Positions 42,235-57,993 of a stretch of DNA of 64,000 nt are shown one piece after another (positions within the stretch are counted from its first letter, which is position 1; every line of letters begins with the position of its first letter). The stretch is from Trypanosoma brucei (taxonomy: Eukaryota): positions 1,024,001-1,088,000 of the forward strand of contig CP000066.1 in NCBI GenBank assembly GCA_000002445.1, written 5' to 3'. Both the position numbers and the translations under genes were made by a program. The notes below the pieces were generated by a model that made no database searches, was not told the DNA's origin, and was given only the letters and a program-made list of their open reading frames with translations.

Positions 42235-42555
42235 GATACCTACTGCACCTCTTTTAGTTGTTGCGACGCACGCCATTGCCGTTATTTTAGGCATGATGGC
42301 ATTGTTATTGTCGTTATAGTTCAACAGGAGAAACCTCTTCACCGTGAAGCGATGTTCCTCTTCTTTTTCCCTCTTAACATCGTCAGATTTTTTTTTTTTG
42401 CTCCGCATCACAATAGTGTTTAGGAAGTTTAGCCTCTCCATATTAATTGCTTGACGCAGTCAAACACGCGTTTGAACTTCTGGTGGGTAGAGGTGATAGG
42501 TCCACCGTCCTTTGTTTTTTTGCAGCCTGTAGACAAACCCGTTGCTGCCACGATA

Positions 42556-45500
42556 ATGAATACAAACCGGCCGAACACATCTGGCGTTCCCTCTTCTTCC
42601 TCCACTGCCGGCCCCTTGGCTTTACGGAGCGGAAGCACCGCAGGGGTTGTTGGGGGAACTGACGCTGGTAGAAGCGGCAGCAGATCAATGGATTATAACC
42701 CGTTCTCTCTCATGGATGTTGGGACGGCGAAGATTGGGTTTGAACAATTCCATGGGGTGCCGTCGTCAATGCCGATGCAACAGCAACAGCGCGGGGTGCC
42801 AACAACAGCCACGTCCATGGGCTCTGCTGTTGACTGTCAGCTTCGCAAGTCTTCGGCAGGAACCCAACAAGGAGACCACTCATACTACCAGCAACAGCGG
42901 CAACCTTCTCTGTCCCAACCTCAACAGCGCACGAATCTTTCGCTGGATTTGGCGAGAGTCACCCAGTTGGCATCACAACGCAGCGGCTCAGCCATTACAA
43001 CCACACGACAAGATATCGTGACACCATCCTCCGCGAACCGCTCGGTTTCTCAGAGCTCTGCTCTGGATTTAAAAACCAGGGGGGGCTCTCTAGATACCGT
43101 CACGTCCATGCGCTCTGGAACAGATGGGGAGCCACATGGTAGAGTTGCGAAGCGTTCAGCAATCTTTAGTAACTTCCTCAAAAGGGATCCCCCAGACTTT
43201 TTGAAACCGTCGCCAAACACCTTACTGCGGCGACAAGGGTCAAGCACAGCGGTGACCGCACGTGGGCTTTTTGGTGACCAGTCTCGCTCTGGCAGCACCG
43301 CGACAAACCCAGACGCGCACGTGTCGCGTCCGCAACACCAGGAACAACTACTGGACCCCTCGCCATCGCAAGGGTACTCTCCAGGGTTTGTGCTCTACAC
43401 AGCGAGGGAAAGGGACCGCGTCAAACCTGCATTCTTCAGTCATTCTGCATTGACAGCTCGACCGAGTGCTGAGGATACTTCAACACGGTTTGTTTCATCT
43501 GAGCAGTGTGTTTCCCCCCTCCCGAGCAGCACGAATCAAGCGACAGCTTCGCACCTTCCCCAAGGACCCCCGCTGGGCGTGAACAACCCTGGGGCGACAG
43601 AGCCTCACTTTACTGACAGTGGAAGCGCCTCAACCGTTGTTTCAACGGCCACTGGGACGCATCTGCCCCATGGTTCAGATTCTGTTGTTTCTGCTCCGAA
43701 TGCACTCACCAGTGATTTTCATGTACCCCAAATGGACATAGCCGTGAGAGGTGTGTTGGGAGATACGAGGTTATCTAACGCCACGACATCGTCAGCATCA
43801 CAGAGTCTTGCCTACCTAACTCCAGGTGCTGAGGTTGCTGTCAGCGAAAATTATGCTGAGAAAAACAATATTCTGGTTAGCAGGCCACCTTCAGCTCCTC
43901 ATGCTCACATGCCGTTGCCGGCGGATCCGGGTGTGGGAAGCGTCCTCTCGGCGGACAACGTGGCCATGAATCGGGGTGATGCTCTGGGGCTGCCAATGCC
44001 GCAAGGCATCCCAAATGATGGGTTGAGTCCAAATGGAACCGAAGAAACGGCTTTGGCTCTTCCTCCTCCTCCTTTTCCTGGGTTTGGGCATCCCCATAAG
44101 GTATGCCCCGCTGCTGTTGTGCCTGCCGGTGATGACGTTGCTGCGCCTCATGTAACCTCCGCTACGCACGGCCTTGGTTTCCCGCCCACGGGCCGCCAAC
44201 GGCAGGAGCGGACGGAACACGATACACAGGCTTGTGTGTTTATCGACGGCTTTGACCCGAGCGAAGCCCCCCCAGCTGCGCCGTCCTATGGGGATGCCGT
44301 AGACGGTTCGTCTTCGCAAGAGTGGCACGATGGTTCGCTGCAGGACGCGGTTGCCACAGCGCCTTCTAATGTGGGGTCCGAGGCTTTGCTATTTGAGGGC
44401 CCAACTCAGGCAGGGGAAGTTGGTACTAACATGTGTCCCGTTGAAGAGGGGACATCTCCGGAAGCGCGGCTGCCGGCTTTAGATATGGCTGCTCTCCCTG
44501 TGTCCAGCCGCCGTGAAGGGAAAGGTTGGGGACAACAACATCGTCCACGTGGTGGAGCCCCGTGTTTTGCCGTATTTTCTCCTACGGGCTGTGTTATTGC
44601 AGTGTTTAACGCTCCCAATCCCTCCGTGAAGCCCAGGTTTGTATGCAGTCGTGTCGCGGACATACTTTCTGGGAAGGCGAAAGGTATGAACCCTTCCAAA
44701 GTGGGTGAAGACTATGTAACGACCCTTCGCGTTTCGGCTGCATTCACCCTTAGAAAAATCAATGAAAACAAAGTTCCACTGACGTCTCTCCGCGAAGCCG
44801 TCCAGCAAGTGCCCGACATCCTTCCGCTTCTAAGGGGCGTTTTGTCCTACGCGCTGCGTGACCCGTTGCCTGACTGGCGTAACGGTGGACAGAAGGAGCT
44901 TACCAAAATGCTCTCGGAGGTGGCTGAGCAGGTGCCCCCCTCCAGTGTGATGAACCCTATTCGGCTGTCCGACCCAAATTTGTTGAAGAGGGACCCGGAA
45001 CAGGGTCTGCGGGAGGTGCAACGGTTGTTGCTTATTGGAGAGCGTGAGGCTGCCGTGGGGGTGGCTATGGAGTTTCAGTTATACACGCATGCCATTATTA
45101 TTTCGATGGTGTGCCCCACCAAAGAGCAATACATGGATGTAATCCGTACCGTTGTTGAGAAAGAGTTAAGCCCCCTTTCACCTCTTGCTCACGCCTACTG
45201 TACGTTTAACGAGCTACCGCTTCCTGGATTCGCGAGTTCGCCAACATCTACGTTGCCCAGTGCACCGACGGGAGGGTGTGAGGTTTGCGTTCGGCAGTCC
45301 TGGGTGCAGCACGCGGCACTGTTTGTGTCTAACTTCACTAGGGAAAGTGCGGTGGGCTTGGTACAGCTGGGAGATGCCCTTGTAAAAGAAGGGTTGATTG
45401 ACGAGGCCTATTGTTGTTTTCTGCTCGCTCATCTTACTCCGATGGGAAATGTTGCCCCTCAGCAGCTACCACAACCCCAACAGCAGCACGTCATGAATCT

Positions 45501-46719
45501 TCTTCGTGTGCGACTTGGCGCATTGGGTGGGCACTGCCGTCCTGACGGTGTGCGTGTGGTTCTGACGCCGAAATTGCTGTTTCTAGCTGATGTTGTAGAC
45601 AACATTCGCTGTAACCTTGAAGTGTCTGCACAACCTGCAGCAACGGAAGGGGAGGGTTTAGTGATGCGTCACGGACTTCCCGCTCGCTCGCCTGCCAGCA
45701 AAGTTGTGTTCTGCTATTTGCAAATGTTATGGTTACAGGAGGTGGGTCTGCATGATATGGCGGATCCTTTCATGGCACACACACTCCGGATGGCACCGAC
45801 GTCATCCAAGAACTCGGCACCATTCACTTTGAACCGCCTGCTCGCCTCCGGACCCCCTGTCCCTGCGCCAGCCACTGCAACCGATGCTGCCGTCGCACCT
45901 GTCCCCATTCCCACCCCTGGTACGCCTCAGCCGAAAACGGCTCCACCAGCTCCTGGACTTCTAAACAAAGGGATCGGACCAAGGTTTGGTGCCCAGACGT
46001 CACAAAGAGTACTGCCGCGGATAGGACCAGACGGGTACCGTGTAACCACGATGCCCACTGCCCCGCAGACGTCGCCGCCGGTGCCAATGCTAGCAGGAGC
46101 GTTTACGCCCAACGCACCGGGAGGCGCCCAGACCGCAGGCTCGTCCATACCGCCACCGCCTGCCTCATTCCAGTCAAAAGTAGTGTCTACTGCGCCACCT
46201 CCTCCACCTCTTTCGTGCCAGGTGAAATCAGTCCCTGAAGGCGGTGCGGTAGAGAGTGAACCTACCAACCCGAACTCGGCCAGTTCCTCTTCCACTTCGT
46301 TCCCTGCTGCGCCACCCACTACCGCTCGCGGCCGTCCCGCTGAGCCTGGCCCAACTCAAGATCCCGGAAACAACGAGCGAACACAAGAGCCAACGAAGCA
46401 GCAGAGACAACAGCCGCCCCGCTCAGGCTCTCTTGGTGCCCTCGCCAGTTTCTTGTTCCGGCGCAGCGGCTCCAAAGACAACGAAGCGAAAAAGGACGAA
46501 CCAAAGAAGATGATCATTGACACTGAGAAGCCTCCTAAGTTTGACCCCACGAGGGGTTGCTATCTCTTTCCCGAGTCTGAAGAGGATAAGAAAGTGGCAG
46601 AGATGATCAAGGCGGGTCCTATGATGCGATTTTCCGTGAAGCAGCAAGCCCCGCAGGGACCGGTTAACCGCCGAATGCCCGTAAGGACGAAATATGTGGA
46701 CACATTTAACTCCTCCTGA
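42556..46719 (+). CDS. Sec16-like ER-exit-site scaffold protein (~1387 aa, Pro/Ser/Gln-rich with a central conserved domain)
   Basis: The track start at 42451 is TTG; the first ATG is 42556 (MNTNRPNTSG...), preceded by a T-run and AG. Central blocks APCFAVFSPTGCVIAVFNAP, LLLIGEREAAVGVAMEFQLYTHAIIISMVCP and GDALVKEGLIDEAYCCFLLAH resemble the Sec16 central conserved domain. They parallel the VKFGFGGKL, LLLSGxKEEAL ... LWxHALxLAS and FCYLLA-type motifs as I recall them. Flanks are disordered and proline-rich. Confidence 0.5.
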   Translation: MNTNRPNTSGVPSSSSTAGPLALRSGSTAGVVGGTDAGRSGSRSMDYNPFSLMDVGTAKIGFEQFHGVPSSMPMQQQQRGVPTTATSMGSAVDCQLRKSSAGTQQGDHSYYQQQRQPSLSQPQQRTNLSLDLARVTQLASQRSGSAITTTRQDIVTPSSANRSVSQSSALDLKTRGGSLDTVTSMRSGTDGEPHGRVAKRSAIFSNFLKRDPPDFLKPSPNTLLRRQGSSTAVTARGLFGDQSRSGSTATNPDAHVSRPQHQEQLLDPSPSQGYSPGFVLYTARERDRVKPAFFSHSALTARPSAEDTSTRFVSSEQCVSPLPSSTNQATASHLPQGPPLGVNNPGATEPHFTDSGSASTVVSTATGTHLPHGSDSVVSAPNALTSDFHVPQMDIAVRGVLGDTRLSNATTSSASQSLAYLTPGAEVAVSENYAEKNNILVSRPPSAPHAHMPLPADPGVGSVLSADNVAMNRGDALGLPMPQGIPNDGLSPNGTEETALALPPPPFPGFGHPHKVCPAAVVPAGDDVAAPHVTSATHGLGFPPTGRQRQERTEHDTQACVFIDGFDPSEAPPAAPSYGDAVDGSSSQEWHDGSLQDAVATAPSNVGSEALLFEGPTQAGEVGTNMCPVEEGTSPEARLPALDMAALPVSSRREGKGWGQQHRPRGGAPCFAVFSPTGCVIAVFNAPNPSVKPRFVCSRVADILSGKAKGMNPSKVGEDYVTTLRVSAAFTLRKINENKVPLTSLREAVQQVPDILPLLRGVLSYALRDPLPDWRNGGQKELTKMLSEVAEQVPPSSVMNPIRLSDPNLLKRDPEQGLREVQRLLLIGEREAAVGVAMEFQLYTHAIIISMVCPTKEQYMDVIRTVVEKELSPLSPLAHAYCTFNELPLPGFASSPTSTLPSAPTGGCEVCVRQSWVQHAALFVSNFTRESAVGLVQLGDALVKEGLIDEAYCCFLLAHLTPMGNVAPQQLPQPQQQHVMNLLRVRLGALGGHCRPDGVRVVLTPKLLFLADVVDNIRCNLEVSAQPAATEGEGLVMRHGLPARSPASKVVFCYLQMLWLQEVGLHDMADPFMAHTLRMAPTSSKNSAPFTLNRLLASGPPVPAPATATDAAVAPVPIPTPGTPQPKTAPPAPGLLNKGIGPRFGAQTSQRVLPRIGPDGYRVTTMPTAPQTSPPVPMLAGAFTPNAPGGAQTAGSSIPPPPASFQSKVVSTAPPPPPLSCQVKSVPEGGAVESEPTNPNSASSSSTSFPAAPPTTARGRPAEPGPTQDPGNNERTQEPTKQQRQQPPRSGSLGALASFLFRRSGSKDNEAKKDEPKKMIIDTEKPPKFDPTRGCYLFPESEEDKKVAEMIKAGPMMRFSVKQQAPQGPVNRRMPVRTKYVDTFNSS

Positions 46720-47343
46720 TGCTTGAAAGCATGCTCCGCAGTTAGTTGCACCTGATATTAATCGAGAAAGTCGTGGAAGTGTGTATATGTATGTGCTGTG
46801 CCGAATGATTTTGCATTGATGCCGAATGTAGCGGGTCGATGAATAGATGACTTTGGGACTCCCTTTTCGAGGATGTTCCCCTCCTACTGTGAAGTAGTCG
46901 CATCAAATTGTGTGTGTGAGGCGTGGAAAGGGATGTGCACGTGTGCGTACGTGTGGCTGGCGGCAGGCTCAGAAATGAAGTGATCAGAGGGCATAGTGTT
47001 GTCCTTAGAATGGAGCGGTTAGAATTGTGTTAGGTGGTGGAAAGGCGTCCACAAATCGCGTACGTGGGTGTTGAATAAGTGCGGGATGTGGCCATGGTTC
47101 TCCTTTGTTTTGCTGTCGTCACCTTTCTCCCTACTTTTTCTTCGCATAAGCCGACAATAATGCGCGCATGTTTTAAAATAACGATTCTTCTTTTTGTACT
47201 GCTTACACACTGTTATCATGAATGCGTGATTGTACGGTTAATATCCCTGTTTTAGCACGCATTTGCTGGACGTGCTGCAGAAGAAAACGAAGGTGAAAAA
47301 AGCGGACACATCGCTGTGCCATTTTCTTTTTTAAATCAGAAAC

Positions 47344-50300
47344 ATGATGGTGTGCCTTACAATTTTCCTTGATATCTCTTTCCGTATTTGTTTACCCGTT
47401 TTCAATGCGCACTACAGTAAAAGAAGGAAAGGGGGATCGGGGATGCCTATCCCAACGGTAACCATGGGGCCAGACCCGATTTCTGAGCCACTCCTGCATG
47501 ACGCCGACAGGGACGAGATTCCATTCTGTGTAGCTCGTAATATTGGGCGGGAAATGAGACGTGGGTCCAGCAGCGACAGCGGCAATCGTTGGAGACAGGT
47601 GGAACCCGTGTTGGAGTTACAGATTGAAACGCTCTCTACGACGTCAGCGGGGTGGTTTCTGAACTCGTGGTATGGCGCCCTTGTGGTGGCGCTTGTCCTG
47701 CAATCTTTGGTCTCTTTTCAGTGGGGGATGGTGAATATATGTGACAGCTCATCGGTAAGCATTCGCAACCTGGATTCGTGGAGAAGTTCTTGCGTGGAAA
47801 GGTACGAGTATCAGTCGGCTGACCTTAACTGTTCGGGGACTAAGGTTCTGGTGCAGGCATGTGATCCACCGCCACACTCTTCGCATCGTGCAATGCTCCC
47901 ATCTCTTCTAGGATGCGGAGCGGTACCGTTATCAGCACCATCTTACGCGGAGGACTCACCGGGCCCTAATCACGACGGGATGAGCATGCGGAGTGGAGGC
48001 TATATTCCAAAGCAACAACAGCAGCGTCTTTTCAACCTACGGTGGGTAGACCGAAACGTGATTGATATACCGGCAAGTAAGGCCAACCGCTTTCCGCGCG
48101 TCGTTTTCAGTTTAGCATCGCCGCAGGACGCTATTTCTGGAGATATTCCCTTTAAGACTTATCAGTTGCAGGTTGTTCTGGAAAAGTTTCCGGTGCATGC
48201 GCCTTCGGAAGGAGATATAAATGTTAACAGTGGTACCAGCCGGCCGGCAACCACTGGCGTGTACCGATACAACACAACAACCACGTGTTTTCGGACCACA
48301 CCACGATGCTCTTCAGTGGTGTTGCCGCAGGATGTCGTGGTGGTTGGCGGGAATTCGAGAATCACATTAACCATCATCGGTGCTGTGGAGGAGCTGGCGT
48401 CTGTCGCTTCCATGTCCTCTGTTGGTATTGCGTTTCAGCGTTCTTTCTACACCATCTTTACAATTGCATGTCGCTACACCCTCATTGTGATCTCCGGTGT
48501 TCATTTGATCTTCTTTCTTTACCGAATTCGGCGGACGCAGACAATCTATGAGCATTACTGGGTGACGGCCTTGAACGTGGCACTGATACTTTACCTTGAC
48601 CCATTTTTCGCCGCCGGAGTTGACGACGAAAACGGTGTAGAACTTTATCGCTTCTTTGAGTACCACATGCCGAATTATTTCATTGCCTTTTTGAACTGTT
48701 TTATTTTTGCGCTTGTTGGAGCCTCCATTAACGCTTCTGGGGAGGTAGGAGAGACTAAAAGGAGACTGAAGGGGGAAACCGTTCCAGGGTGTGACGCTCC
48801 TGTGCTTGAGGAACCGTCGCCTCGCCCGGGTCGGCCACTAGCGACCGTTCCTCCCGATATGCCTCCTTCTTCACCTGGTGGCGATCCAAGGGATTTGCAA
48901 CGAAAGGAAAAAAATTCATGGACAAGTGAGGCTCATGACAGTTCTGTATTACTTGCCTCCCCTGATGGGGATCGTGCGGCACTCGTGCGACGACGTGGTA
49001 TGCCTCTGTGGGTTACCGTTTCAATCACTTACTACTTCGTTATTCTCGTAGGTCTTGACGTGGGGAGGGCGTTCGTTGAGAATTGGGATTGGGGAACCGT
49101 TGCGGATTGTGCTACATTCTGTTGCCGTTACCTTGCGTCAATGTTCTACACAATGCTCCTGTTGCTTGTTTTTGCGTCGAACGTGCTACTTTTATGGCTC
49201 AAACGAAATCTGGGCAGACAGCCCTACCTAGAGACACGACCACGGCAGCTGGCATGCCGTGTGTTTATCTTCGTGTTTGCTAGTGCTATGGTCTATTTCG
49301 TTGTCCAGGCTGTTCTTATCGATCTACTCTACCCTCATATTGTGCGGATTGTCGTCTATCAGCCATTCAGTCAGCTCGCCCCCGTGATGGTTTCATCTTG
49401 CTTTGTGAGTCACATAACATTTGTGTACACACCCACCACTGCCTCACGGAGGGTGCCCATACGGCCAAACAACCCCATGTGGCGCCGTGTCGTTTGGTCA
49501 CGGCAGTGGTATCAGTGGCTTCAGTTTCACGGTGGCATATTGTACATATTTCACAACGAAGAGCAGGAACGATACTTCAACTTTTTACAGAACAAGCAGA
49601 GGTTGGCGAAAGTCCTTCACCGTCGGTCGGGTCGCGTCCCTGTCGCCACTGAGCACGAGGGTGTAGGGCCCATTTGCTCCACGGCAGAGTGTGTTTGGAA
49701 TGGTGACGGACCACTAGGGACATACGATGCGGAGAGCTCTGATAGTTCAGACTCCAGTGGCGGCGAAAGCAGCTTTTCTTATAATAGCAGTCACAATGAA
49801 GATGATGATGTTGCGTCAAGCGGACGTGGTTCGCGGCGTCGCAACTGGTCGCGCATTCGGAGGGGTGTTTCGACACTGTTCGAACGTGCGGAGTGTCGGT
49901 TCGTGGAGAAATCTGCTTTGCTTCTGGATTCTCTCGAGGGGGCCATTCTTGACCCTTTGCAGTCTCTCCAACTTGGTGGCAATAGGCGTGTGCCCTTTTT
50001 TAACCTCGAGGCCGCGATTGATTGCCTGAATCTGTCGTGGGAGGCATACGCACCTCTGTGTAGTGATGTAGATGCTTCGAGGCGAGATGCTGATGGCGGG
50101 GGGAATGGCACCTCATCTTATTGCGCTGACTGCACTCCCTGTGCGTTTCCCCCAGAGACAAGGGGAGAAGGCGATAGTGATAAAAGCACCTTAGACGAGC
50201 GGGCATTTTTAGAAGGGGCTGTGGACAGCAGTGCAGTGACGACCGTCGATAACAGGCCCATTGATGGTGATTTGCAATCTTTTACAGTTGCGAGGGAGGG

Positions 50301-51192
50301 GTCGTCCACCAGTGTGGGACCTGCTATGTGTACCAAACAATACGGTTATAAGCCAATCGCTGTGTTTGAGGCACTTGATGTAGTGGCTGTTTGTGCTGTC
50401 ATGGACACTGAATTTTTGCACCATCGTGGCAAGGTCCCTCGAATCGTTATCGCATTCCGAGGAACAGCAAATATGAGCAACGCCAGGGAGAACATTCGTG
50501 TTCGGCAGCGTCCGTGGCGGGAAGTAGACGGTGTCCGGCAGTGGTGGGGCCTCACGAAGCGTGCAAGAGTCCACTCGGGTTTCCTTAACATTTGGATCTC
50601 ACTGAAGCCTGCTGTGCTTCATACACTTCACAGGTTCTTAAAGGAGAATTCTTCCACTGTTTACCGTGTGTTTTGCACGGGCCACAGCATGGGGGGTGCT
50701 GTGGCTTGTCTTTGTGCCTACAGTGTGCGGCGTATGCTGCGGGAGATAGAATACCCCTTGGATGAGGTAACGGTTTACACGTTTGGTCAGCCCCCGATGG
50801 GGAACGCAGCGTTTCAAACCGCTTACGACAAGGCGATTCCCCGAACGTTTCGTGTTGTAAACGAGAGTGACGCGGTGTCCCTCTTTTCCCTGTTCGGGGG
50901 CACGCACGTTGGCACCGAAGTGGATATTGACCGCCATGGCAATTACATCTGTAAGCCCATGTTTATTGAGATGTTATTCAGACCCACGGGAGGGAAGGGA
51001 TTTGCTTTAAAAAATCATACCCTTGCTGCCTATGCCCAATCTCTTAATGCCGTTGCGGATCGGAACAGCGGTAGGGAGTGTAAGGTGCGCTGCCTGCAGC
51101 CGTATGTGCGTGATGTTGTAGACCCATCACTTAGCGCTCTTTCCAGTGCTGCCGCCAACGTCTCTGTTGAACACCAAGCTGCGAACGTGTAA
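47344..51192 (+). CDS. polytopic membrane protein with C-terminal class-3 (fungal-type) lipase domain, paralog 1
   Basis: ATG at 47344. About 8 predicted TM helices precede a Ser/acidic linker. The Lipase_3 core has the GHSMGG nucleophile elbow (VFCTGHSMGGAVACLCAY), a candidate Asp in VVNESD and a candidate His in DIDRHGNYICK. Confidence 0.8.
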   Translation: MMVCLTIFLDISFRICLPVFNAHYSKRRKGGSGMPIPTVTMGPDPISEPLLHDADRDEIPFCVARNIGREMRRGSSSDSGNRWRQVEPVLELQIETLSTTSAGWFLNSWYGALVVALVLQSLVSFQWGMVNICDSSSVSIRNLDSWRSSCVERYEYQSADLNCSGTKVLVQACDPPPHSSHRAMLPSLLGCGAVPLSAPSYAEDSPGPNHDGMSMRSGGYIPKQQQQRLFNLRWVDRNVIDIPASKANRFPRVVFSLASPQDAISGDIPFKTYQLQVVLEKFPVHAPSEGDINVNSGTSRPATTGVYRYNTTTTCFRTTPRCSSVVLPQDVVVVGGNSRITLTIIGAVEELASVASMSSVGIAFQRSFYTIFTIACRYTLIVISGVHLIFFLYRIRRTQTIYEHYWVTALNVALILYLDPFFAAGVDDENGVELYRFFEYHMPNYFIAFLNCFIFALVGASINASGEVGETKRRLKGETVPGCDAPVLEEPSPRPGRPLATVPPDMPPSSPGGDPRDLQRKEKNSWTSEAHDSSVLLASPDGDRAALVRRRGMPLWVTVSITYYFVILVGLDVGRAFVENWDWGTVADCATFCCRYLASMFYTMLLLLVFASNVLLLWLKRNLGRQPYLETRPRQLACRVFIFVFASAMVYFVVQAVLIDLLYPHIVRIVVYQPFSQLAPVMVSSCFVSHITFVYTPTTASRRVPIRPNNPMWRRVVWSRQWYQWLQFHGGILYIFHNEEQERYFNFLQNKQRLAKVLHRRSGRVPVATEHEGVGPICSTAECVWNGDGPLGTYDAESSDSSDSSGGESSFSYNSSHNEDDDVASSGRGSRRRNWSRIRRGVSTLFERAECRFVEKSALLLDSLEGAILDPLQSLQLGGNRRVPFFNLEAAIDCLNLSWEAYAPLCSDVDASRRDADGGGNGTSSYCADCTPCAFPPETRGEGDSDKSTLDERAFLEGAVDSSAVTTVDNRPIDGDLQSFTVAREGSSTSVGPAMCTKQYGYKPIAVFEALDVVAVCAVMDTEFLHHRGKVPRIVIAFRGTANMSNARENIRVRQRPWREVDGVRQWWGLTKRARVHSGFLNIWISLKPAVLHTLHRFLKENSSTVYRVFCTGHSMGGAVACLCAYSVRRMLREIEYPLDEVTVYTFGQPPMGNAAFQTAYDKAIPRTFRVVNESDAVSLFSLFGGTHVGTEVDIDRHGNYICKPMFIEMLFRPTGGKGFALKNHTLAAYAQSLNAVADRNSGRECKVRCLQPYVRDVVDPSLSALSSAAANVSVEHQAANV

Positions 51193-52070
51193 CCAAACAG
51201 TGTATGTGAGACTTGAATTTTGGAAATATCGTATACCTTTCTTTCATAGTCGGTTTTGTGTTCACGAAAAAAAAAAACCGCTTCGTTTACTTCTTCCTTT
51301 ACTGTTGTCTATGTGCACGCATGTTGACTCACCTATAATCTGAGAGGCAGCGCGAGCAAGAGACAGACATGAGACGGTGCAGTTGTTCAAGTACCATTCA
51401 TGGGTTTGGTGGATGATGGGGATGCGGGGTCGCTCTCCACATCGTGTCGTGGGGGAGGGGGAGGGCATTTATTGGTCGGGAGAGTTCGAGAGGTGTCGAC
51501 GGTTATTGCTCCATCTTTGTGTGTGTGCACACTTGCGTATGCAGTCCCTTTTTGCCTTCATTTCGCTCTTTTGATGTCTCGTATTAGCTGTGGACGCGCG
51601 ATGCCGTGGGATCTTATGCGTGATCTCTCTGCTTAGACCGCACTTTACGATTTGGCAGCTCTCTCTTGTTGTTTTCCCTCCTTTCTCTATTTTCCTGTTT
51701 GCCGGTCATTTTTGTCAACCTCCCAACCAAAGCCTGACCACCGGGTGGTGCAGTGCCGTTGGCTGTAAACGTGACTTTGAGTGCAAAAGAGACCTATCTG
51801 TTTCCCCCCTTTACCCAAGTTAAAAAGAGTTGTTTCTTGCACTATCCGACTGTTATTCGTGCCTGTGTTTCCTTCCTGTGCCCCCTTCTTTCGCTCCAGC
51901 TGTCCCATTTACCCCCATCACTTGTGGCATTCAAAACAAAGCAGTGACGCCAACGACACCGACGAAAAACAAACAGGCGTAAAGGGACTTTTGCATTCGG
52001 TCAAGTACTGAGGTTTGTTTTTTTTTTCTTCCGGAGACGGAACTCAGAAGGGAGGCCAGAGCCCATCGAG

Positions 52071-55000
52071 ATGGAGAGGAGACAGGCGGGCGGGAATTTG
52101 CTGGACTCTATGAATTCTGCATCAGTGCACGTGAACGACCTTCCAGCTGAGTTCCCCCGTTTTCCACCGCAAACAATTAGCACGGGCGTTGCTTCTCAGA
52201 GTCACCGCAAAAAGTCACCGGCTTCGGGACCCCCGATGAACGGGAGTCATTCTTTTTCTCGTCATACAAACACAGGAACTGTACCTGCCATACCGCGCGC
52301 CCCACGGCGGTGCCGACTTACAAACAACGCACCATTCCCGGACCCCGCCTGCGTGGACTGCCAAAGGCATAGCTGCTCAAGACATTCAGGCGGCAGCACG
52401 TTGGCGGGGGGAGTGGAGCTGCAGATTGAAGGGCTTACGCGCTTCGTTTGGCGGTGTATTTACTTTTTATGGTTGGCAGCCCTTGTCGCCGGTATAGTTT
52501 TGCAATCCTTGCCCTCTATTACATGGAGGGTGCTGGACATCTGTGGAAGGGATGCGCCTGATATGTGGAAATATGGGACATGGAATAGCAACTGTGCGAC
52601 CATAGAGCTGGAGGACAGACACACCGATACCTACCGTGTTCAGTGGAATGGGCGACCATATTCTGTGGACTTTGGTGACCCGTTGCTGCGGTTCCGTAGC
52701 CTCGTAATTAACCTGGCCAGTCCTGACGACTGGGAGGTTTTCCATCCTGACGAGCGCAGGTTCACACTGAGGGTTGCGATTCCCTTTATGGAGGAGAACA
52801 GCAACTGGTCTACTGCCCCGTTGCCGATAGTGTGCCGTCGTGGGGACGATCGATGCGTTTACATAAACCTGCCGCCGGGTGCGGTTTTGAATGACACTGG
52901 TGGAGGACGCGTGTCTCTATCTCTTAGCGATGTCCCCGGAAGTATCGCTCGAAATATAAATAACTCAGCGGTTGGTATCCTTTTTCAAGGGCGTGCTTAC
53001 GCCCTTACAGTGTTGATTTGGCGCTACATAGCCCTTACAATAACGGTTTTGCATGCTATACGGTTCGTAGTGAACCTGAAATACAACAACAGCCTCTATG
53101 AACAGTGGTGGGTTTTGGTGCTGCTGTTGGCGTCTGTGTTGTATCTCAACCCCCTCACCGCCCTTGCCATATCTCCAGATCGGCTTCCACTGCCGCTGGA
53201 GTTCCTTGAACTTCACGTACCATGGTGGTTTGTAGCGGTGGTGGTGAGCTATATGTTTTCTGTTATTACTGCGTCCATGCCGCGCGCTGCGAATCCCACG
53301 AAACAGGAAGGCGCTAAAAACCTGGGATGCCTTAGCCGCATGAAGGCCTGCTTCTGCCGCAGCCGCAGCATATATGACCCTCCGTTGTGGACGAAGGTAG
53401 TGGGAGTGCTTTTTATCATTATAGCCATTGGGCTTGACATAGCAGTGGCCTGGCGGTGCTGCTCTGCAACGCTACATGGGAGGGGGTCGGGTAAGAAAAT
53501 CTACATTTACCTTCTCTGTTCTCTTTTCGGCTTTGGGTCGCTGGTCTGTTGTATTATGCTCTACCGTCTACGTCGGAGCATGTCAAAGAAATCATACCTG
53601 GATTCGAGACCTCAGCAACTTGCCTGCCGTGTTTTCATGTTTATGTTCTTTACGGCCATCATTTTCAGTATTACACAATTCGCTCTGTTTTACGTGCTCG
53701 ATTTCAGAATCCCGGGTATGTTGGCGTGGCAACCACTTATACAGCTACCGGCGTTGTTGGTATGGCCAGTTTTGGTCAATGTCATGACTCTAATATACAC
53801 TACCCGTCACCGCCCAGAGACGGTTCCCGTTCATCCGCGAGACACGCGCTGGAAAGAAAGTGTCTGGCCTGACGATTGGTACCGATGGCTTGTTCGCCAT
53901 GGCGGCAGCATGTACATTTTTCATACAGAGAAGGAGGAGGCCTCCTTCAATTGGAAACAACTGGAGTACCGCGTACGGCGGTACCTTGTGAGGTTAAAGA
54001 GAAGGGGTAGTGTGCATAACTTATCTCTCCTTCTGCAGAGCATACCCAATGACTCTTCATCTCCACCGGTTGAGGGGCCGAGTGACCCCTCGATAAATTA
54101 TACCATTATGTGCTCCGTTCACTCCCGTCCCCAGGATATAGAGTTCTGGAAGGGTCTGAGAGAGTCGATTTGTAATCGAGGCGCAGCCGAGATTGTCAAC
54201 ATGGACATGACGTCCACGTGCTTCCTACCGTACGTTGAAGCAGGGAGGGAAAACGATTTGGGGCCCGAGAGACCGTCAGGCGCATCCCAAGTGATGAGAC
54301 AAAATGTTGGCAGGGAAGGAGGTGGGTCCCGAGCTCCGCTGCTAGAAAACGATGGGGGAGCTCTCAACGGTTCCGTGGCGTTGAGGTTGAGCTCCACCAC
54401 CGGGGATGCACCTCCCGGTGACGGGGAGCGTCGTCTGGGGTCTGTGGATGATCATTCAGAGGATAGCGGCGACGATGGAGGGTCAACTAATAACCCAAAG
54501 AGTGTGTGGCAAGCACTCCGTGGTGTAATTTCCGCGTCGGTGAGGGGAGCCGGGAGGAACTTATTCGAACGACCTGCTCATGCGTTTGAGCGTGCCGAAA
54601 CCTATCTTTTGGATGCTGTTCAGCAAAGGATGCACGAACCCCTGTACCTCCCGTTTTTCAATCTTGAGACAGCCATTGACTGCTTCAACATAGCGTTTGA
54701 ATCGTACAATTGGAAGGGACAGTCGCACGCCCGGGCCCAAGAAAGAAAGGTTGGAACCTCGGGCCGCTGCCGCGGCTCTTCAAACTACCGTTCAAATGCT
54801 CGCGAATCCGCTGCTTACCCCCGGGAAACGGACCCAGACGCGTGCAGCACGTCGCAAGGTGATGTTGAGATGCGCAAATTTTGCCCTAGTACAGAACAAC
54901 AGTCTGTGGCAGCCACTCCAGACCATAACGGGACGCCCACTATCGATGTGGAACAATACGGTTATAAGCCAATCGCTGTGTTTGAGGCACTTGATGTAGT

Positions 55001-55769
55001 GGCTGTTTGTGCTGTCATGGACACTGAATTTTTGCACCATCGTGGCAAGGCCCCTCGAATCGTTATCGCATTCCGAGGAACAGCAAATATGAGCAACGTG
55101 AGGGAGGACATCAAGATGCGCCGCCGTGCTTGGGATGAAATGAAGACCGATAGGGACAATGCGTCTCTGAAGTCGAGTTGCTGCTGGGAACCAACGGTCC
55201 ACTCCGGATTTTTGGAGATCTGGGAAGCACACCAAACTTCTATTGAAGAAAAACTTGGCGGGTTCTTAAAGGACAATTCTTCCACTGTTTACCGTGTGTT
55301 TTGCACGGGCCACAGCATGGGGGGTGCTGTGGCTTGTCTTTGTGCCTACAGTGTGCGGCGTATGCTGCGGGAGATAGAATACCCCTTGGATGAGGTAACG
55401 GTTTACACGTTTGGTCAGCCCCCGATGGGGAACGCAGCGTTTCAAACCGCTTACGACAAGGCGATTCCCCGAACGTTTCGTGTTGTAAACGAGAGTGACA
55501 CATTTGCAACGTTCCGGCTTTACGGCACGCAAGTTGGCACCGAAGTGGATATTAACCGCCATGGCAATTACATCTGTAAGCCCACGTATATGGAGCAACG
55601 GTGCCACCCAATGAAGAATAAGGTGTTTGGAATCGAGGGCCATCAGGTGAAGTCTTATGCCCGCTCGCTCAATGCCTTGGCGCTCGACACATCCTGCAAG
55701 ATACGTGCTTCCGGCGATCCAGAGGCGTCATATGTGGCCGAGCCTGGACGCGAGCCGGATGCCATGTAA
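52071..55769 (+). CDS. polytopic membrane protein with C-terminal class-3 lipase domain, paralog 2
   Basis: ATG at 52071. Same architecture as 47344..51192. The N-terminal membrane region is about 35-40% identical; examples are QLACRVFMFMF versus QLACRVFIFVF and WYRWLVRHGGSMYIFH versus WYQWLQFHGGILYIFH. The lipase core is identical and contains GHSMGG. Confidence 0.8.
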   Translation: MERRQAGGNLLDSMNSASVHVNDLPAEFPRFPPQTISTGVASQSHRKKSPASGPPMNGSHSFSRHTNTGTVPAIPRAPRRCRLTNNAPFPDPACVDCQRHSCSRHSGGSTLAGGVELQIEGLTRFVWRCIYFLWLAALVAGIVLQSLPSITWRVLDICGRDAPDMWKYGTWNSNCATIELEDRHTDTYRVQWNGRPYSVDFGDPLLRFRSLVINLASPDDWEVFHPDERRFTLRVAIPFMEENSNWSTAPLPIVCRRGDDRCVYINLPPGAVLNDTGGGRVSLSLSDVPGSIARNINNSAVGILFQGRAYALTVLIWRYIALTITVLHAIRFVVNLKYNNSLYEQWWVLVLLLASVLYLNPLTALAISPDRLPLPLEFLELHVPWWFVAVVVSYMFSVITASMPRAANPTKQEGAKNLGCLSRMKACFCRSRSIYDPPLWTKVVGVLFIIIAIGLDIAVAWRCCSATLHGRGSGKKIYIYLLCSLFGFGSLVCCIMLYRLRRSMSKKSYLDSRPQQLACRVFMFMFFTAIIFSITQFALFYVLDFRIPGMLAWQPLIQLPALLVWPVLVNVMTLIYTTRHRPETVPVHPRDTRWKESVWPDDWYRWLVRHGGSMYIFHTEKEEASFNWKQLEYRVRRYLVRLKRRGSVHNLSLLLQSIPNDSSSPPVEGPSDPSINYTIMCSVHSRPQDIEFWKGLRESICNRGAAEIVNMDMTSTCFLPYVEAGRENDLGPERPSGASQVMRQNVGREGGGSRAPLLENDGGALNGSVALRLSSTTGDAPPGDGERRLGSVDDHSEDSGDDGGSTNNPKSVWQALRGVISASVRGAGRNLFERPAHAFERAETYLLDAVQQRMHEPLYLPFFNLETAIDCFNIAFESYNWKGQSHARAQERKVGTSGRCRGSSNYRSNARESAAYPRETDPDACSTSQGDVEMRKFCPSTEQQSVAATPDHNGTPTIDVEQYGYKPIAVFEALDVVAVCAVMDTEFLHHRGKAPRIVIAFRGTANMSNVREDIKMRRRAWDEMKTDRDNASLKSSCCWEPTVHSGFLEIWEAHQTSIEEKLGGFLKDNSSTVYRVFCTGHSMGGAVACLCAYSVRRMLREIEYPLDEVTVYTFGQPPMGNAAFQTAYDKAIPRTFRVVNESDTFATFRLYGTQVGTEVDINRHGNYICKPTYMEQRCHPMKNKVFGIEGHQVKSYARSLNALALDTSCKIRASGDPEASYVAEPGREPDAM

Positions 55770-57286: not shown

Positions 57287-57993
57287 AAGTATGACTTACT
57301 CATCAGCAGCTGTACAAAAGACGTGTATTTGTGTGTGTGTGTTTGTGTGTGTGTGGGAGGCGTGGAAAGGTGTTAAAGCTCTTTTGCTTTAAATTTTATT
57401 GTTTGGTGGGAAGGTGGAGTGGCAGAGTGCAAGCATAAAGCGAGATGGAAGAAAATATGAGTGCATGATGTCGGTAAAAAGTTACTTCATCTTGTTTTCT
57501 GTCTTTATTCTTCTCTTTTTTTCGTTGGCCACCTTCTGTACTATTTACTGGCTTGTGGTGTGTCGAATCACTCTACTGAGGAGCGTGTGGTGCTTCGGTA
57601 TATATATTTGCCTGCTAGTGTGTTTCTTTTTTTTTTTTGTTGGCCTTGTGTGGGGACTTGTGGCGTGTTGAAGAGGTCGTTTTAAATTCCCCCACAGTGG
57701 CGTGCTGGATGTGTTCTCTGTTGGGAGAAGGGGAAATTGAAATCATTTTACCCGTCAAGAGGGCAAATGTGTGGTGTTCCTTTCTTTTTTGTTTTCCGTT
57801 TCTACCGAGGCTGTTTGTTTGTTTCATGCTTCCCTTTCTTCACTTTTGGTTATTCTACGCTTCATTTACGTTCCCCTCCGCTATTCTCTTGATTATGGGT
57901 TAGGTTTTGCACCCCGTAACTGCGCTCAGTAGGAGGAGTTTGACGAGACACACACCTGCACATAAGCGTAAATAGATAAATAATCTTTGTGAA

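Follow-up and report, generated by a model that had tools for sequence, protein, structure and literature searches.

Mosaic identity in the catalytic core of two tandem Trypanosoma lipase genes and its probable origin in recurrent short-tract gene conversion

INTRODUCTION

Interlocus gene conversion is known classically from the globins, the opsins, RHD/RHCE and CYP21A2/CYP21A1P. The two tandem lipase genes of Trypanosoma brucei considered here, A and B, resemble these systems in their patchy, sharp-edged identity, in the identity of their silent sites, in the clustering of paralogues by species and in polymorphism common to both copies. We see no fundamental difference from classical interlocus conversion (for reviews see PMC3966223 and PMC3924832); what stands out is a duplication older than the genus and a segment of ~126 nt that has been re-converted in every examined lineage.

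Closer comparisons are available within T. brucei itself. Partial gene conversion was reported in 21 of 47 tandem arrays of this organism (Jackson 2007, BMC Evol Biol 7:54; PMC1855330). A and B are array 16 in Table S3 of that study ('lipase domain protein', chromosome 3, 1071344-1079769), which corresponds to positions 47344-55769 of the window, the 64,000-nt stretch of T. brucei TREU927 chromosome 3 to which all positions below refer. Table 1 and Table S1 of the same study deal only with arrays of at least four copies; array 16 is omitted there and the pair was just catalogued. Organism and process are the same, and A and B likewise are tandem polycistronic duplicates with chimaeric copies and partial homogenisation. 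However, they are far more divergent than most of the arrays analysed in that study (saturated dS), their tracts are tiny relative to the gene and confined to part of one domain, and their UTRs are unrelated, with no sequence shared between those of A and B. A further relative is the segmental (mosaic) conversion of VSG genes: it too is short-tract, homology-limited and non-reciprocal, acts on diverged paralogues and uses the homologous-recombination machinery (PMC1904282; see also PMC13233330). VSG mosaics, though, diversify an expressed antigen with sequence from silent donors and are selected by the immune system, whereas in A and B, two housekeeping-type genes of a core chromosome, conversion homogenises a conserved enzymatic core. 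The pair is a clean and genus-recurrent new example of a well-known process, not a new kind of biology.

RESULTS

Gene A (47344-51192, + strand) is an open reading frame of 1282 aa with a 100% match to the TREU927 protein XP_843978 ('lipase, putative'), and gene B (52071-55769, + strand) is one of 1232 aa corresponding to XP_843979 ('lipase domain protein, putative') and protein-cluster members. A is probably Tb927.3.3860, judging from the adjoining Sec16 gene, Tb927.3.3850 (identifier from PMC11858755), and B is probably Tb927.3.3870, which is called 'lipase domain protein' in PMC2771046. The two are tandem paralogues with ~30% protein identity outside the lipase core and saturated silent sites. 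The order Sec16-A-B-carnitine acyltransferase is syntenic in T. cruzi, T. rangeli, T. conorhini, T. grayi and T. theileri. Homologues of both the A type and the B type are also found in Leishmaniinae and Phytomonas, so the duplication is ancient; it predates the diversification of Trypanosoma and probably that of the trypanosomatids. In T. vivax, B alone apparently suffices.

In each protein a long disordered linker joins a Wntless-fold 8-TM module to the class-3 lipase domain at the C-terminus. The N-terminal module of A (47620-49620, + strand) matches Pfam PF06664 (WLS-like_TM, aa 368-460) with 30.4 bits at a curated cutoff of 28.3; B itself does not match this profile, and the B orthologues of T. 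cruzi and T. rangeli match it weakly or faintly. The homologous module of B (52401-54020, + strand) was modelled with AF2 (aa 111-650; moderate quality, pLDDT 71.7, pTM 0.71), and the predicted 8-TM fold agrees with the earlier note, in which the lipases had been called polytopic. Searched with Foldseek, this model had human WLS as its best four PDB matches (E 1.5e-8 to 8e-7, ~550 columns covered, TM-score 0.44-0.56), with TMEM87A next. The module of B is thereby predicted to have the Wntless/GOLD-7TM fold, in which an N-terminal TM helix (TM1) and a luminal beta-sandwich precede a bundle of seven TM helices. Since trypanosomatids are not known to have Wnt ligands, the membership of A and B in the Wntless family is structural only. 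Both modules are paralogue-specific and unconverted; the N-terminal protein identity of A and B, put at 35-40% in the earlier note, was measured at 30% overall and 34% in the transmembrane core.

The assignment to class-3 lipases was confirmed by Pfam PF01764 (Lipase_3), which matches A with 96.5 bits (E 1e-27) and B with 92.3 bits (E 3e-26) at a cutoff of 22. The nearest solved relatives of the domain are the lipase of Rhizomucor miehei and other fungal lipases (E 6e-12). GHSMGG aligns to GHSLGG (S144) and NESD to NERD (D203) of 4TGL, placing the nucleophile Ser at 50686-50688 in A and 55314-55316 in B, and the catalytic Asp at 50869-50871 and 55497-55499 (all + strand). A nearly invariant His (in at least 90% of 13 sequences) stands in an NHxxxxY motif, as KNHTL in A and EGHQV in B. 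From its position in the motif we regard it as the putative catalytic His (51016-51018 in A, 55641-55643 in B); it falls outside the phmmer alignment, in a low-confidence region of the model. Our literature search returned no biochemical account of lipolytic activity for these putative lipases.

Within the lipase domain, A and B share three nearly identical blocks with one mismatch each, as had been observed before; all lie on the + strand. Block 1 spans 147 nt (50336-50482 in A, 54952-55098 in B, offset 4616; mismatch at 50435) and encodes beta strands and the oxyanion-hole motif IVIAFRGT. The block itself had been recognised correctly, but its A coordinates were one base out of register. Block 2 (50633-50871 in A, 55261-55499 in B, offset 4628) has 239 nt with a mismatch at 50646 and a perfect run of 225 nt, and carries the Ser and the Asp in both copies. 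Its second half (2b, 50746-50871, EVTVYTFGQPP...RTFRVVNESD) is the segment of genus-wide conversion. Block 3, VGTEVDIDRHGNYICKP in the A copy, comprises 52 nt (50908-50959 in A, 55533-55584 in B, offset 4625; mismatch at 50929). The motifs of the blocks, FRGT, GHSxGG, TVYTFGQPP, RTFRVVNESD and DIDRHGNYICKP, are nearly invariant across the 13 sequences.

The sequence between the blocks is divergent, again as first reported, and so is the C-terminal tail. The inter-block region 50485-50631 is 50% identical between A and B at the nucleotide level (dS 1.24). It holds a paralogue-specific island (50496-50624 in A, + strand; 55112-55252 in B) with the lid-equivalent segment and the next helix, placed by its position relative to FRGS...VHKGF of the Rhizomucor lipase and by the AF2 model. 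The short island 50872-50907 (+ strand; AVSLFSLFGG in A, TFATFRLY-G at 55500-55532 in B) has 52% identity and a dS of 1.84. The C-terminal tail (50960-51189 in A, + strand; 55585-55766 in B), which bears the putative His, has 47% identity and a dS of 2.6. The spacers contain indels of 12 and 3 nt. Accordingly, the claim that conversion is confined to the catalytic core holds for Ser and Asp but not for the His region (51016) or the lid-equivalent segment, both of which are paralogue-specific.

Along the whole alignment, sliding-window identity is bimodal (~35-55% versus 96-100%) and not uniform, with a non-block background of 43-51%, and dS is 0-0.03 within blocks versus 1.2-2.6 or saturation elsewhere. 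Among codons for the same amino acid, third positions are identical in 147 of 147 cases inside the blocks; the corresponding counts are 12 of 24 elsewhere in the domain and 103 of 253 over the remainder of the gene. Identity at all silent sites rules out constraint at the protein level as its explanation. The recombination test pointed the same way: in a Sawyer-type permutation, which stood in for GENECONV, the observed identical runs of 225, 99 and 47 nt were set against 10,000 column shuffles with maxima of 25 (whole gene) and 66 nt (lipase domain), and the result was significant. GC3 does not rise in the tracts; a signature of GC-biased conversion is thus lacking, but conversion does not require one. 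As for direction, block 1 of T. brucei mixes A-type and B-type diagnostic residues, which suggests exchanges both ways, and in block 2 the diagnostic residues of STVYRV suggest transfer from B to A.

Four T. brucei-group assemblies were compared as consensus sequences rather than phased reads: TREU927, DAL972, T. equiperdum OVI and T. b. equiperdum GCA_003543875.1. Across these four consensus assemblies, both paralogues vary at two sites (50384/55000 T/C and 50737/55365 C/T), and six further variants shift one copy to the state of the other. Two assemblies have a block 2 of 225 nt, the remaining two one of 240 nt; the mismatch of block 1 is absent from T. equiperdum OVI and T. b. equiperdum GCA_003543875.1, and that of block 3 from two of the assemblies besides TREU927. 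Because polymorphisms are common to the paralogues and tract edges differ among the four, conversion in the T. brucei group looks recent or ongoing.

Neighbour-joining trees with bootstrap were built by segment and included orthologues of as many as six further Trypanosoma species. Outside the blocks A groups with A and B with B, with 96-100% bootstrap in the N-terminus and between blocks 1 and 2 (100% for the N-terminal modules, 99-100% for the island between these blocks) and 95-96% in the C-terminal tail. Inside blocks 1 and 2 the two T. brucei genes form a clade with 100% bootstrap, which points to conversion; in block 3 the figure is only 74-79% because informative sites are few. At 50746-50871, A and B pair by species in T. 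brucei (100%), T. theileri (100%), T. cruzi (98%) and T. grayi (89%), while T. rangeli and T. conorhini form only a joint four-gene clade (95%). A and B cluster by species here in every examined lineage with both copies. Supporting this is our observation that most pairs have 0-1 quartet informative sites for orthology versus 6-29 of the species type in this segment. For T. cruzi and T. rangeli the counts are 505 orthology versus 24 species-type sites in the N-terminus and 1 versus 14 in 2b, and even T. rangeli and T. conorhini, which are sister species, have private runs of species-type sites. In the same window, A-B identity within species (0.91-0.99) exceeds A-A identity between species (0.74-0.77), and synonymous codons are species-specific yet common to A and B.

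The remaining segments have other histories. Outside T. brucei, block 1 shows an A-B identity of just 53-60% and no long identical run; it is converted in the T. brucei lineage only, and T. congolense A and T. vivax B bear older chimeric traces. In T. grayi and T. theileri, B-type sequence has replaced the island 50872-50907. The reading frame of T. theileri A is intact after this overwriting; the overwritten copy of T. grayi has a frameshift, which may be a mere sequencing error. Tract ends coincide across species immediately after NESD and after CKP.

DISCUSSION

Recurrent short-tract interlocus gene conversion between A and B very probably explains the block mosaic. The checks proposed in the earlier note, run as suggested or through a close substitute, all pointed to it. 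Conversion recurs in every examined species with both copies, centred on 50746-50871, and is not specific to T. brucei. The earlier note had spoken of repeated conversion; this has been shown across lineages and may also hold for the three T. brucei blocks individually. Homologous recombination in T. brucei has a minimal identical segment of ~31 bp (short-substrate pathway) or ~100 bp, is impeded by mismatches and is accompanied by short-patch mismatch repair (PMC1904282). Under our proposal, short parts of the lipase core in one copy are repeatedly overwritten from the other through non-reciprocal homologous recombination. If either copy suffered a break or a stalled fork, repair would presumably use the other, ~4.6 kb away, as its template, and the short near-identical run needed for strand invasion would be supplied solely by the most conserved core motifs. 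Tracts would end where divergence grows too high or indels occur, and each conversion would renew perfect identity and prime the next round. Selection would probably purge conversions that overwrite the lid-equivalent loop, the His-bearing tail or the membrane module. The outcome is a stable mosaic, in which the oxyanion-hole strands, the Ser elbow and the Asp evolve in concert within each species and the remainder of A and B as two independent orthologue lineages.

Could the core have stayed identical without recombination, under extreme purifying selection at the level of amino acids, codon usage or an embedded RNA? The blocks do encode those motifs that are best conserved in the family, nearly invariant in 13 sequences. 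However, silent sites that are 100% identical within T. brucei differ between orthologues, A-A and B-B identity between species is 0.61-0.78 in the block windows, every species has its own codons common to A and B, and trees group by species inside the tracts only. A fixed element under selection would make all species alike, and we hold this alternative to be extremely improbable. We also considered the tracts as a conserved nucleotide element unchanged in all species; between-species identities and species-specific codons contradict it. Nor is it credible, beyond a negligible chance, that reads of the two copies were collapsed or mis-joined into falsely identical segments. The T. congolense IL3000 models of both genes are interrupted immediately upstream of the lipase domain, in the manner of repeat-induced breaks in draft assemblies, and any T. 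brucei-group assembly guided by TREU927 could copy variants between identical tracts. Yet the blocks (52-240 nt) are shorter than one Sanger read and have unique flanks, the mosaic recurs, with private, strain-specific differences, in four assemblies that come from different projects, and five other species show the phenomenon with sequences of their own; collapse, which had been named as a way in which the observation could fail, is thus excluded.

Two further readings accept conversion and dispute its number or its cause. The three T. brucei blocks might all date from a single recent repair in which the template was switched or a heteroduplex was mended in patches: they are equally close to zero divergence (0-1 mismatch each) and hence equally young, which makes a single multi-patch event possible, and short-patch mismatch repair with discontinuous tracts is seen in T. 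brucei transformation assays (PMC1904282). Against this, a continuous heteroduplex is unlikely across spacers of ~50% identity with indels of 12 and 3 nt, phylogenetic depth differs (2b converted in all species, block 1 in the T. brucei lineage only) and strain-level changes are independent in blocks 1, 2 and 3, so that we judge the single event quite unlikely. Unlikely, too, is adaptive homogeneity, in which identical cores are favoured, for example through a common partner, a heteromer or a common inhibitor or regulator, and selection rather than homology limits sets the tract borders. It would fit the one ~126-nt segment that is concerted in every lineage throughout the history of the genus, the conservation of the islands (lid-equivalent loop, MFIE/TYME, His tail) within each orthologue group and the tract ends at NESD and CKP that match across species. 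But indels and a drop to low identity lie at these borders as well, so that a neutral, homology-limited model predicts them too; moreover, the island 50872-50907 has been overwritten in T. grayi and T. theileri, with an intact frame in T. theileri A, and T. vivax apparently manages with B alone.

Returning to recurrent conversion, one may speculate that selection keeps the Ser-Asp core identical, for example owing to joint action or a common regulator, while lids, tails and membrane modules stay distinct; we hold this to be distinctly improbable. If it were true, the distinct lids, the His-bearing tails and the membrane modules, which bind lipid on this reading, would serve different substrates or compartments, and the locus would be a natural case of modular, selection-bounded conversion persisting since before the radiation of the genus. 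It would also suggest that kinetoplastids have an uncharacterised class of enzymes that process lipids while embedded in the membrane.

By general description, a membrane anchor followed by a Lipase_3 domain, A and B can be likened to the sn-1 diacylglycerol lipases DAGL-alpha and DAGL-beta, in which an N-terminal polytopic anchor precedes a cytosolic Lipase_3 domain. The anchor of DAGL has four TM helices, in contrast to the predicted Wntless-fold module of TM1, luminal beta-sandwich and seven TM helices. Homologues exist in Leishmania: proteins annotated as 'Wnt-binding factor required for Wnt secretion/Lipase (class 3), putative' (for example L. infantum XP_001466652) are homologues of gene A by best match of the N-terminus, and they have the same two-domain architecture but are longer (~1700 aa).

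Gene conversion between two old lipase paralogues

The near-identical blocks shared by the two tandem lipase genes, A and B, are very probably due to gene conversion. This reading, put forward in an earlier note, is supported by silent-site identity, permutation, incongruent trees and strain-level variants. The genes lie head to tail on the forward strand at 47344-51192 (A, 1282 aa) and 52071-55769 (B, 1232 aa), with Sec16 (42451-46719; Pfam TPR_Sec16) directly upstream. The translation of gene A is 100% identical to XP_843978 (T. brucei brucei TREU927 chromosome 3, 1,653,225-bp contig), and the lipase pair catalogued by Jackson 2007 at chr3 1071344-1079769 is exactly 47344-55769 of the window. 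Since the Sec16 gene is Tb927.3.3850 (PMC11858755), A and B are most likely Tb927.3.3860 and Tb927.3.3870, the first of these identifiers following from adjacency.

Direct alignment bore out three near-identical blocks with one mismatch apiece: block 1 (A 50336-50482 and B 54952-55098), block 2 (A 50633-50871 and B 55261-55499) and block 3 (A 50908-50959 and B 55533-55584). The A coordinates proposed earlier for block 1 were one base out of register. A repeat finder run over 46.5-57.5 kb returned only these three block families of substance, and A/B homology in the UTRs and intergenic DNA did not rise above chance 8-18-mers. Overall nucleotide identity in a codon-aware alignment is 51%. It is far from uniform, as 40-codon sliding windows are 33-55% identical outside the blocks and 96-100% identical inside. 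At the protein level the N-terminal regions are 30% identical (34% in the transmembrane core), somewhat lower than the 35-40% estimated earlier.

Block identity exceeds chance, and protein constraint is not its cause. The identical A/B runs measure 225, 99, 47, 30 and 21 nt; in 10,000 column shuffles the longest run was 25 nt for the whole gene and 66 nt for the lipase domain only. The runs of 225 and 99 nt exceed both maxima in this Sawyer-style permutation, which together with quartet site maps stood in for GENECONV and RDP. Among codons for the same amino acid, third positions are identical at all 147 sites in the blocks, at 12 of 24 in the rest of the lipase domain and at 103 of 253 elsewhere. 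Nei-Gojobori dS is 0.03, 0 and 0 in the blocks, 1.24 and 1.84 in the two divergent spacers between them and 2.62 in the tail after block 3; upstream the genes are too saturated for it to be computed. There is no sign of GC-biased conversion, block GC3 (0.44-0.67) not being consistently higher than that of the rest of the gene (0.53-0.57) in any species.

Another possibility raised earlier is that the identical blocks are the product of assembly collapse. We compared the lipase domains of four assemblies, namely TREU927, T. b. gambiense DAL972, T. equiperdum OVI and T. b. equiperdum GCA_003543875.1. Sites 50384/55000 and 50737/55365 are polymorphic in both paralogues, and at six further sites the variant of one strain is the base of the other paralogue. 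The block 1 mismatch at 50435 is found in TREU927 alone, and block 2 has a perfect run of 225 nt in two of the four assemblies and of 240 nt in the remaining two. Because of this strain-level pattern, and because the blocks are short relative to Sanger reads, assembly collapse is untenable. The same variants fit gene conversion on the time scale of strain divergence. In the T. b. equiperdum assembly (L002 7409-8941), gene A is annotated as a 510-aa fragment. This locus is 99.07% identical to the window with 11 gap openings, single-base gaps at window positions 49376 and 50893 among them, and the gaps are probably consensus indel errors and not pseudogenisation.

Conversion across the genus

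A phylogeny of the gene parts with orthologues, proposed earlier as a check, also agrees with conversion. In neighbour-joining trees with bootstrap, built on segments of the codon alignment, orthology clades (A with A and B with B across species) are recovered at 100% for the N-terminus, 100% for the block 1-2 spacer and 96% for the tail, whereas blocks 1 and 2 place T. brucei A as sister to T. brucei B with 100% support. Trees of the second half of block 2 (50746-50871) unite the A and B copies of a species, with support of 100% in T. brucei and in T. theileri, 98% in T. cruzi and 89% in T. grayi; the four T. rangeli and T. conorhini genes fall into one joint clade (95%). Within-species A-B identity in this segment is 0.91-0.99, higher than the between-species A-A or B-B identity of 0.74-0.78, and the codon view reveals species-specific synonymous codons common to A and B. 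Informative sites of the T. cruzi-T. rangeli quartet favour orthology over within-species grouping by 505 to 24 in the N-terminus, but the balance is reversed to 1 against 14 in 50746-50871. Quartet maps of the sister species T. rangeli and T. conorhini contain private runs of species-type sites in each; therefore, conversion went on after their split.

The history of block 1 is different, with homogenisation in T. brucei only and an A-B identity of 53-60% in other species. The T. brucei block is a mix of A-diagnostic and B-diagnostic residues. Because some of these are also present in T. congolense A (protein model P0013) and in T. vivax B, which retains A-type residues (EMDTT..HRNK), the sequences suggest that the African clade saw older exchanges, running both ways.

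The gene order Sec16, A, B, small ORFs and carnitine acyltransferase is kept in T. cruzi, T. rangeli, T. conorhini, T. grayi and T. theileri, and T. brucei A and B each have their own orthologue in these five species (41-46% identity). A single-copy state in T. theileri was considered and rejected, the upstream 1368-aa gene being the A paralogue. By best hit of the N-terminus, proteins of Leishmania, Leptomonas, Lotmaria and Phytomonas also divide into an A-type and a B-type group. Taken together, these comparisons indicate that the duplication predates Trypanosoma and, with best hits as the basis, probably the trypanosomatids. T. vivax (GCA_021307395.1, L008 1962-11876; L009) has only a B-type gene between Sec16 and the downstream genes, and tblastn found no A-like remnant in the 1.9-kb gap. 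Unequal crossing-over would leave a chimera of an A N-terminus and a B C-terminus; the remaining gene is B-like over its whole length, so that A was probably lost, not fused. T. congolense IL3000 was represented by protein models only (P0006, P0012 and P0013), the B lipase domain missing. Its A and B models both end just upstream of the lipase domain, and the A domain is a separate 282-aa model (TCIL3000_3_2480). Such breaks would arise if the draft assembly had been disrupted by near-identical lipase domains.

Tract borders and likely mechanism

Recombination in T. brucei has minimal efficient segments of about 31 bp (a short-substrate pathway) and about 100 bp according to Barnes and McCulloch (PMC1904282); mismatches inhibit it, and short-patch mismatch repair was found in the same work. 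The tracts of 50-240 nt are consistent with these experimental values. In other species, every A/B identical run of at least 18 nt falls within 50666-50959. Only the most conserved lipase motifs supply such runs between otherwise saturated paralogues. Conversion begun in these motifs would halt at the indel-bearing divergent spacers, and each event would renew its own identical substrate. Selection against overwriting paralogue-specific segments may be an added factor. It is not absolute, since B-type sequence has taken the place of the A-type island between blocks 2 and 3 (50872-50907) in T. grayi and T. theileri. The T. grayi gene A model (L005, about 13463) is shortened by a 1-nt frameshift, an extra G that coincides exactly with the left border of an A/B tract about 140 nt long (3 mismatches). 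Without this G, the reading frame is a full 1272 aa; the frameshift may be a sequencing error, or else a genuine lesion that arose at a conversion junction.

That interlocus conversion can be restricted to conserved stretches of old paralogues is textbook knowledge, and the lipase pair is a new, well-resolved example of a known process, with no new mechanism. It stands out for how old the duplicates are, how small the tracts are and how the same segment of roughly 126 nt is converted again in every two-copy lineage. Jackson 2007 found partial conversion in 21 of 47 T. brucei tandem arrays and lists the pair as array 16; Table 1 and Table S1 of that study hold only arrays of at least 4 copies and leave it out. 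The locus offers a clean natural experiment on the minimal homology island for conversion between saturated trypanosome paralogues, shows how tract borders behave across the whole history of the genus and could serve as a convenient endogenous reporter of ectopic recombination outside the VSG system. Since the core groups by species and not by paralogue, trees, orthology tables and dN/dS would be misleading if the C-terminal lipase domain were included. Short-read mapping, CRISPR, RNAi and PCR primers directed at the blocks will match both genes. Expression estimates for A and B could likewise be blurred by reads from the identical blocks; Tb927.3.3870, called 'lipase domain protein', has a value of 3.1, direction unconfirmed, in a table of cultured bloodstream forms versus log-phase procyclic forms (PMC2771046).

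The tracts in the encoded proteins

Each protein has a Pfam Lipase_3 match and can be aligned to Rhizomucor miehei lipase. Block 1 encodes the strands ending in IVIAFRGT, the oxyanion-hole motif, and block 2 starts with the strand that precedes the nucleophile elbow (GHSMGG) and ends at the catalytic Asp (NESD). Thus, the earlier description of the converted region as the catalytic core is apt for the nucleophile Ser (50686-50688 in A, 55314-55316 in B) and the Asp (50869-50871 and 55497-55499), both inside block 2, but not for the whole triad, because the tail, which is not converted, carries the putative His (51016-51018 and 55641-55643). Motif spacing and a moderate AF2 model suggest that the block 1-2 spacer is the counterpart of the fungal-lipase lid region; only parts of the lipase-domain model are confident (pLDDT 60; core 80-97; below 50 for residues 306-352).

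The N-terminal modules (A 47620-49620, B 52401-54020) have a predicted Wntless fold comprising TM1, a luminal beta-sandwich and 7 TM helices. The AF2 membrane-module model has a pTM of 0.71, its top four PDB matches are human WLS, and Pfam WLS-like_TM is above threshold in gene A. The architecture is already in databases, Leishmania orthologues being auto-named 'Wnt-binding factor required for Wnt secretion/Lipase (class 3)'. Literature searches found no functional study, whether of the gene identifiers, of Wntless plus lipase in Trypanosoma or of the Wntless-lipase architecture. The fusion of a Wntless-type lipid-binding module to a lipase, in an organism that lacks Wnt, makes an interesting lead on function. 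The linker between the two parts (A 49618-50330, B 53990-54950) is long, of low complexity and predicted to be disordered (pLDDT 23-37); its length differs between the paralogues, with indels of up to about 90 codons, and it includes a short conserved motif, PFFNLE(T/A)AIDC (A, about 49990).

The only repeat bracketing the lipase pair is a 23-nt direct repeat, TGTGTGTGTGAGGCGTGGAAAGG, at 46909-46931 and 57348-57370 (22/23 identical, spacing 10,439 nt), which probably reflects chance or low-complexity sequence.
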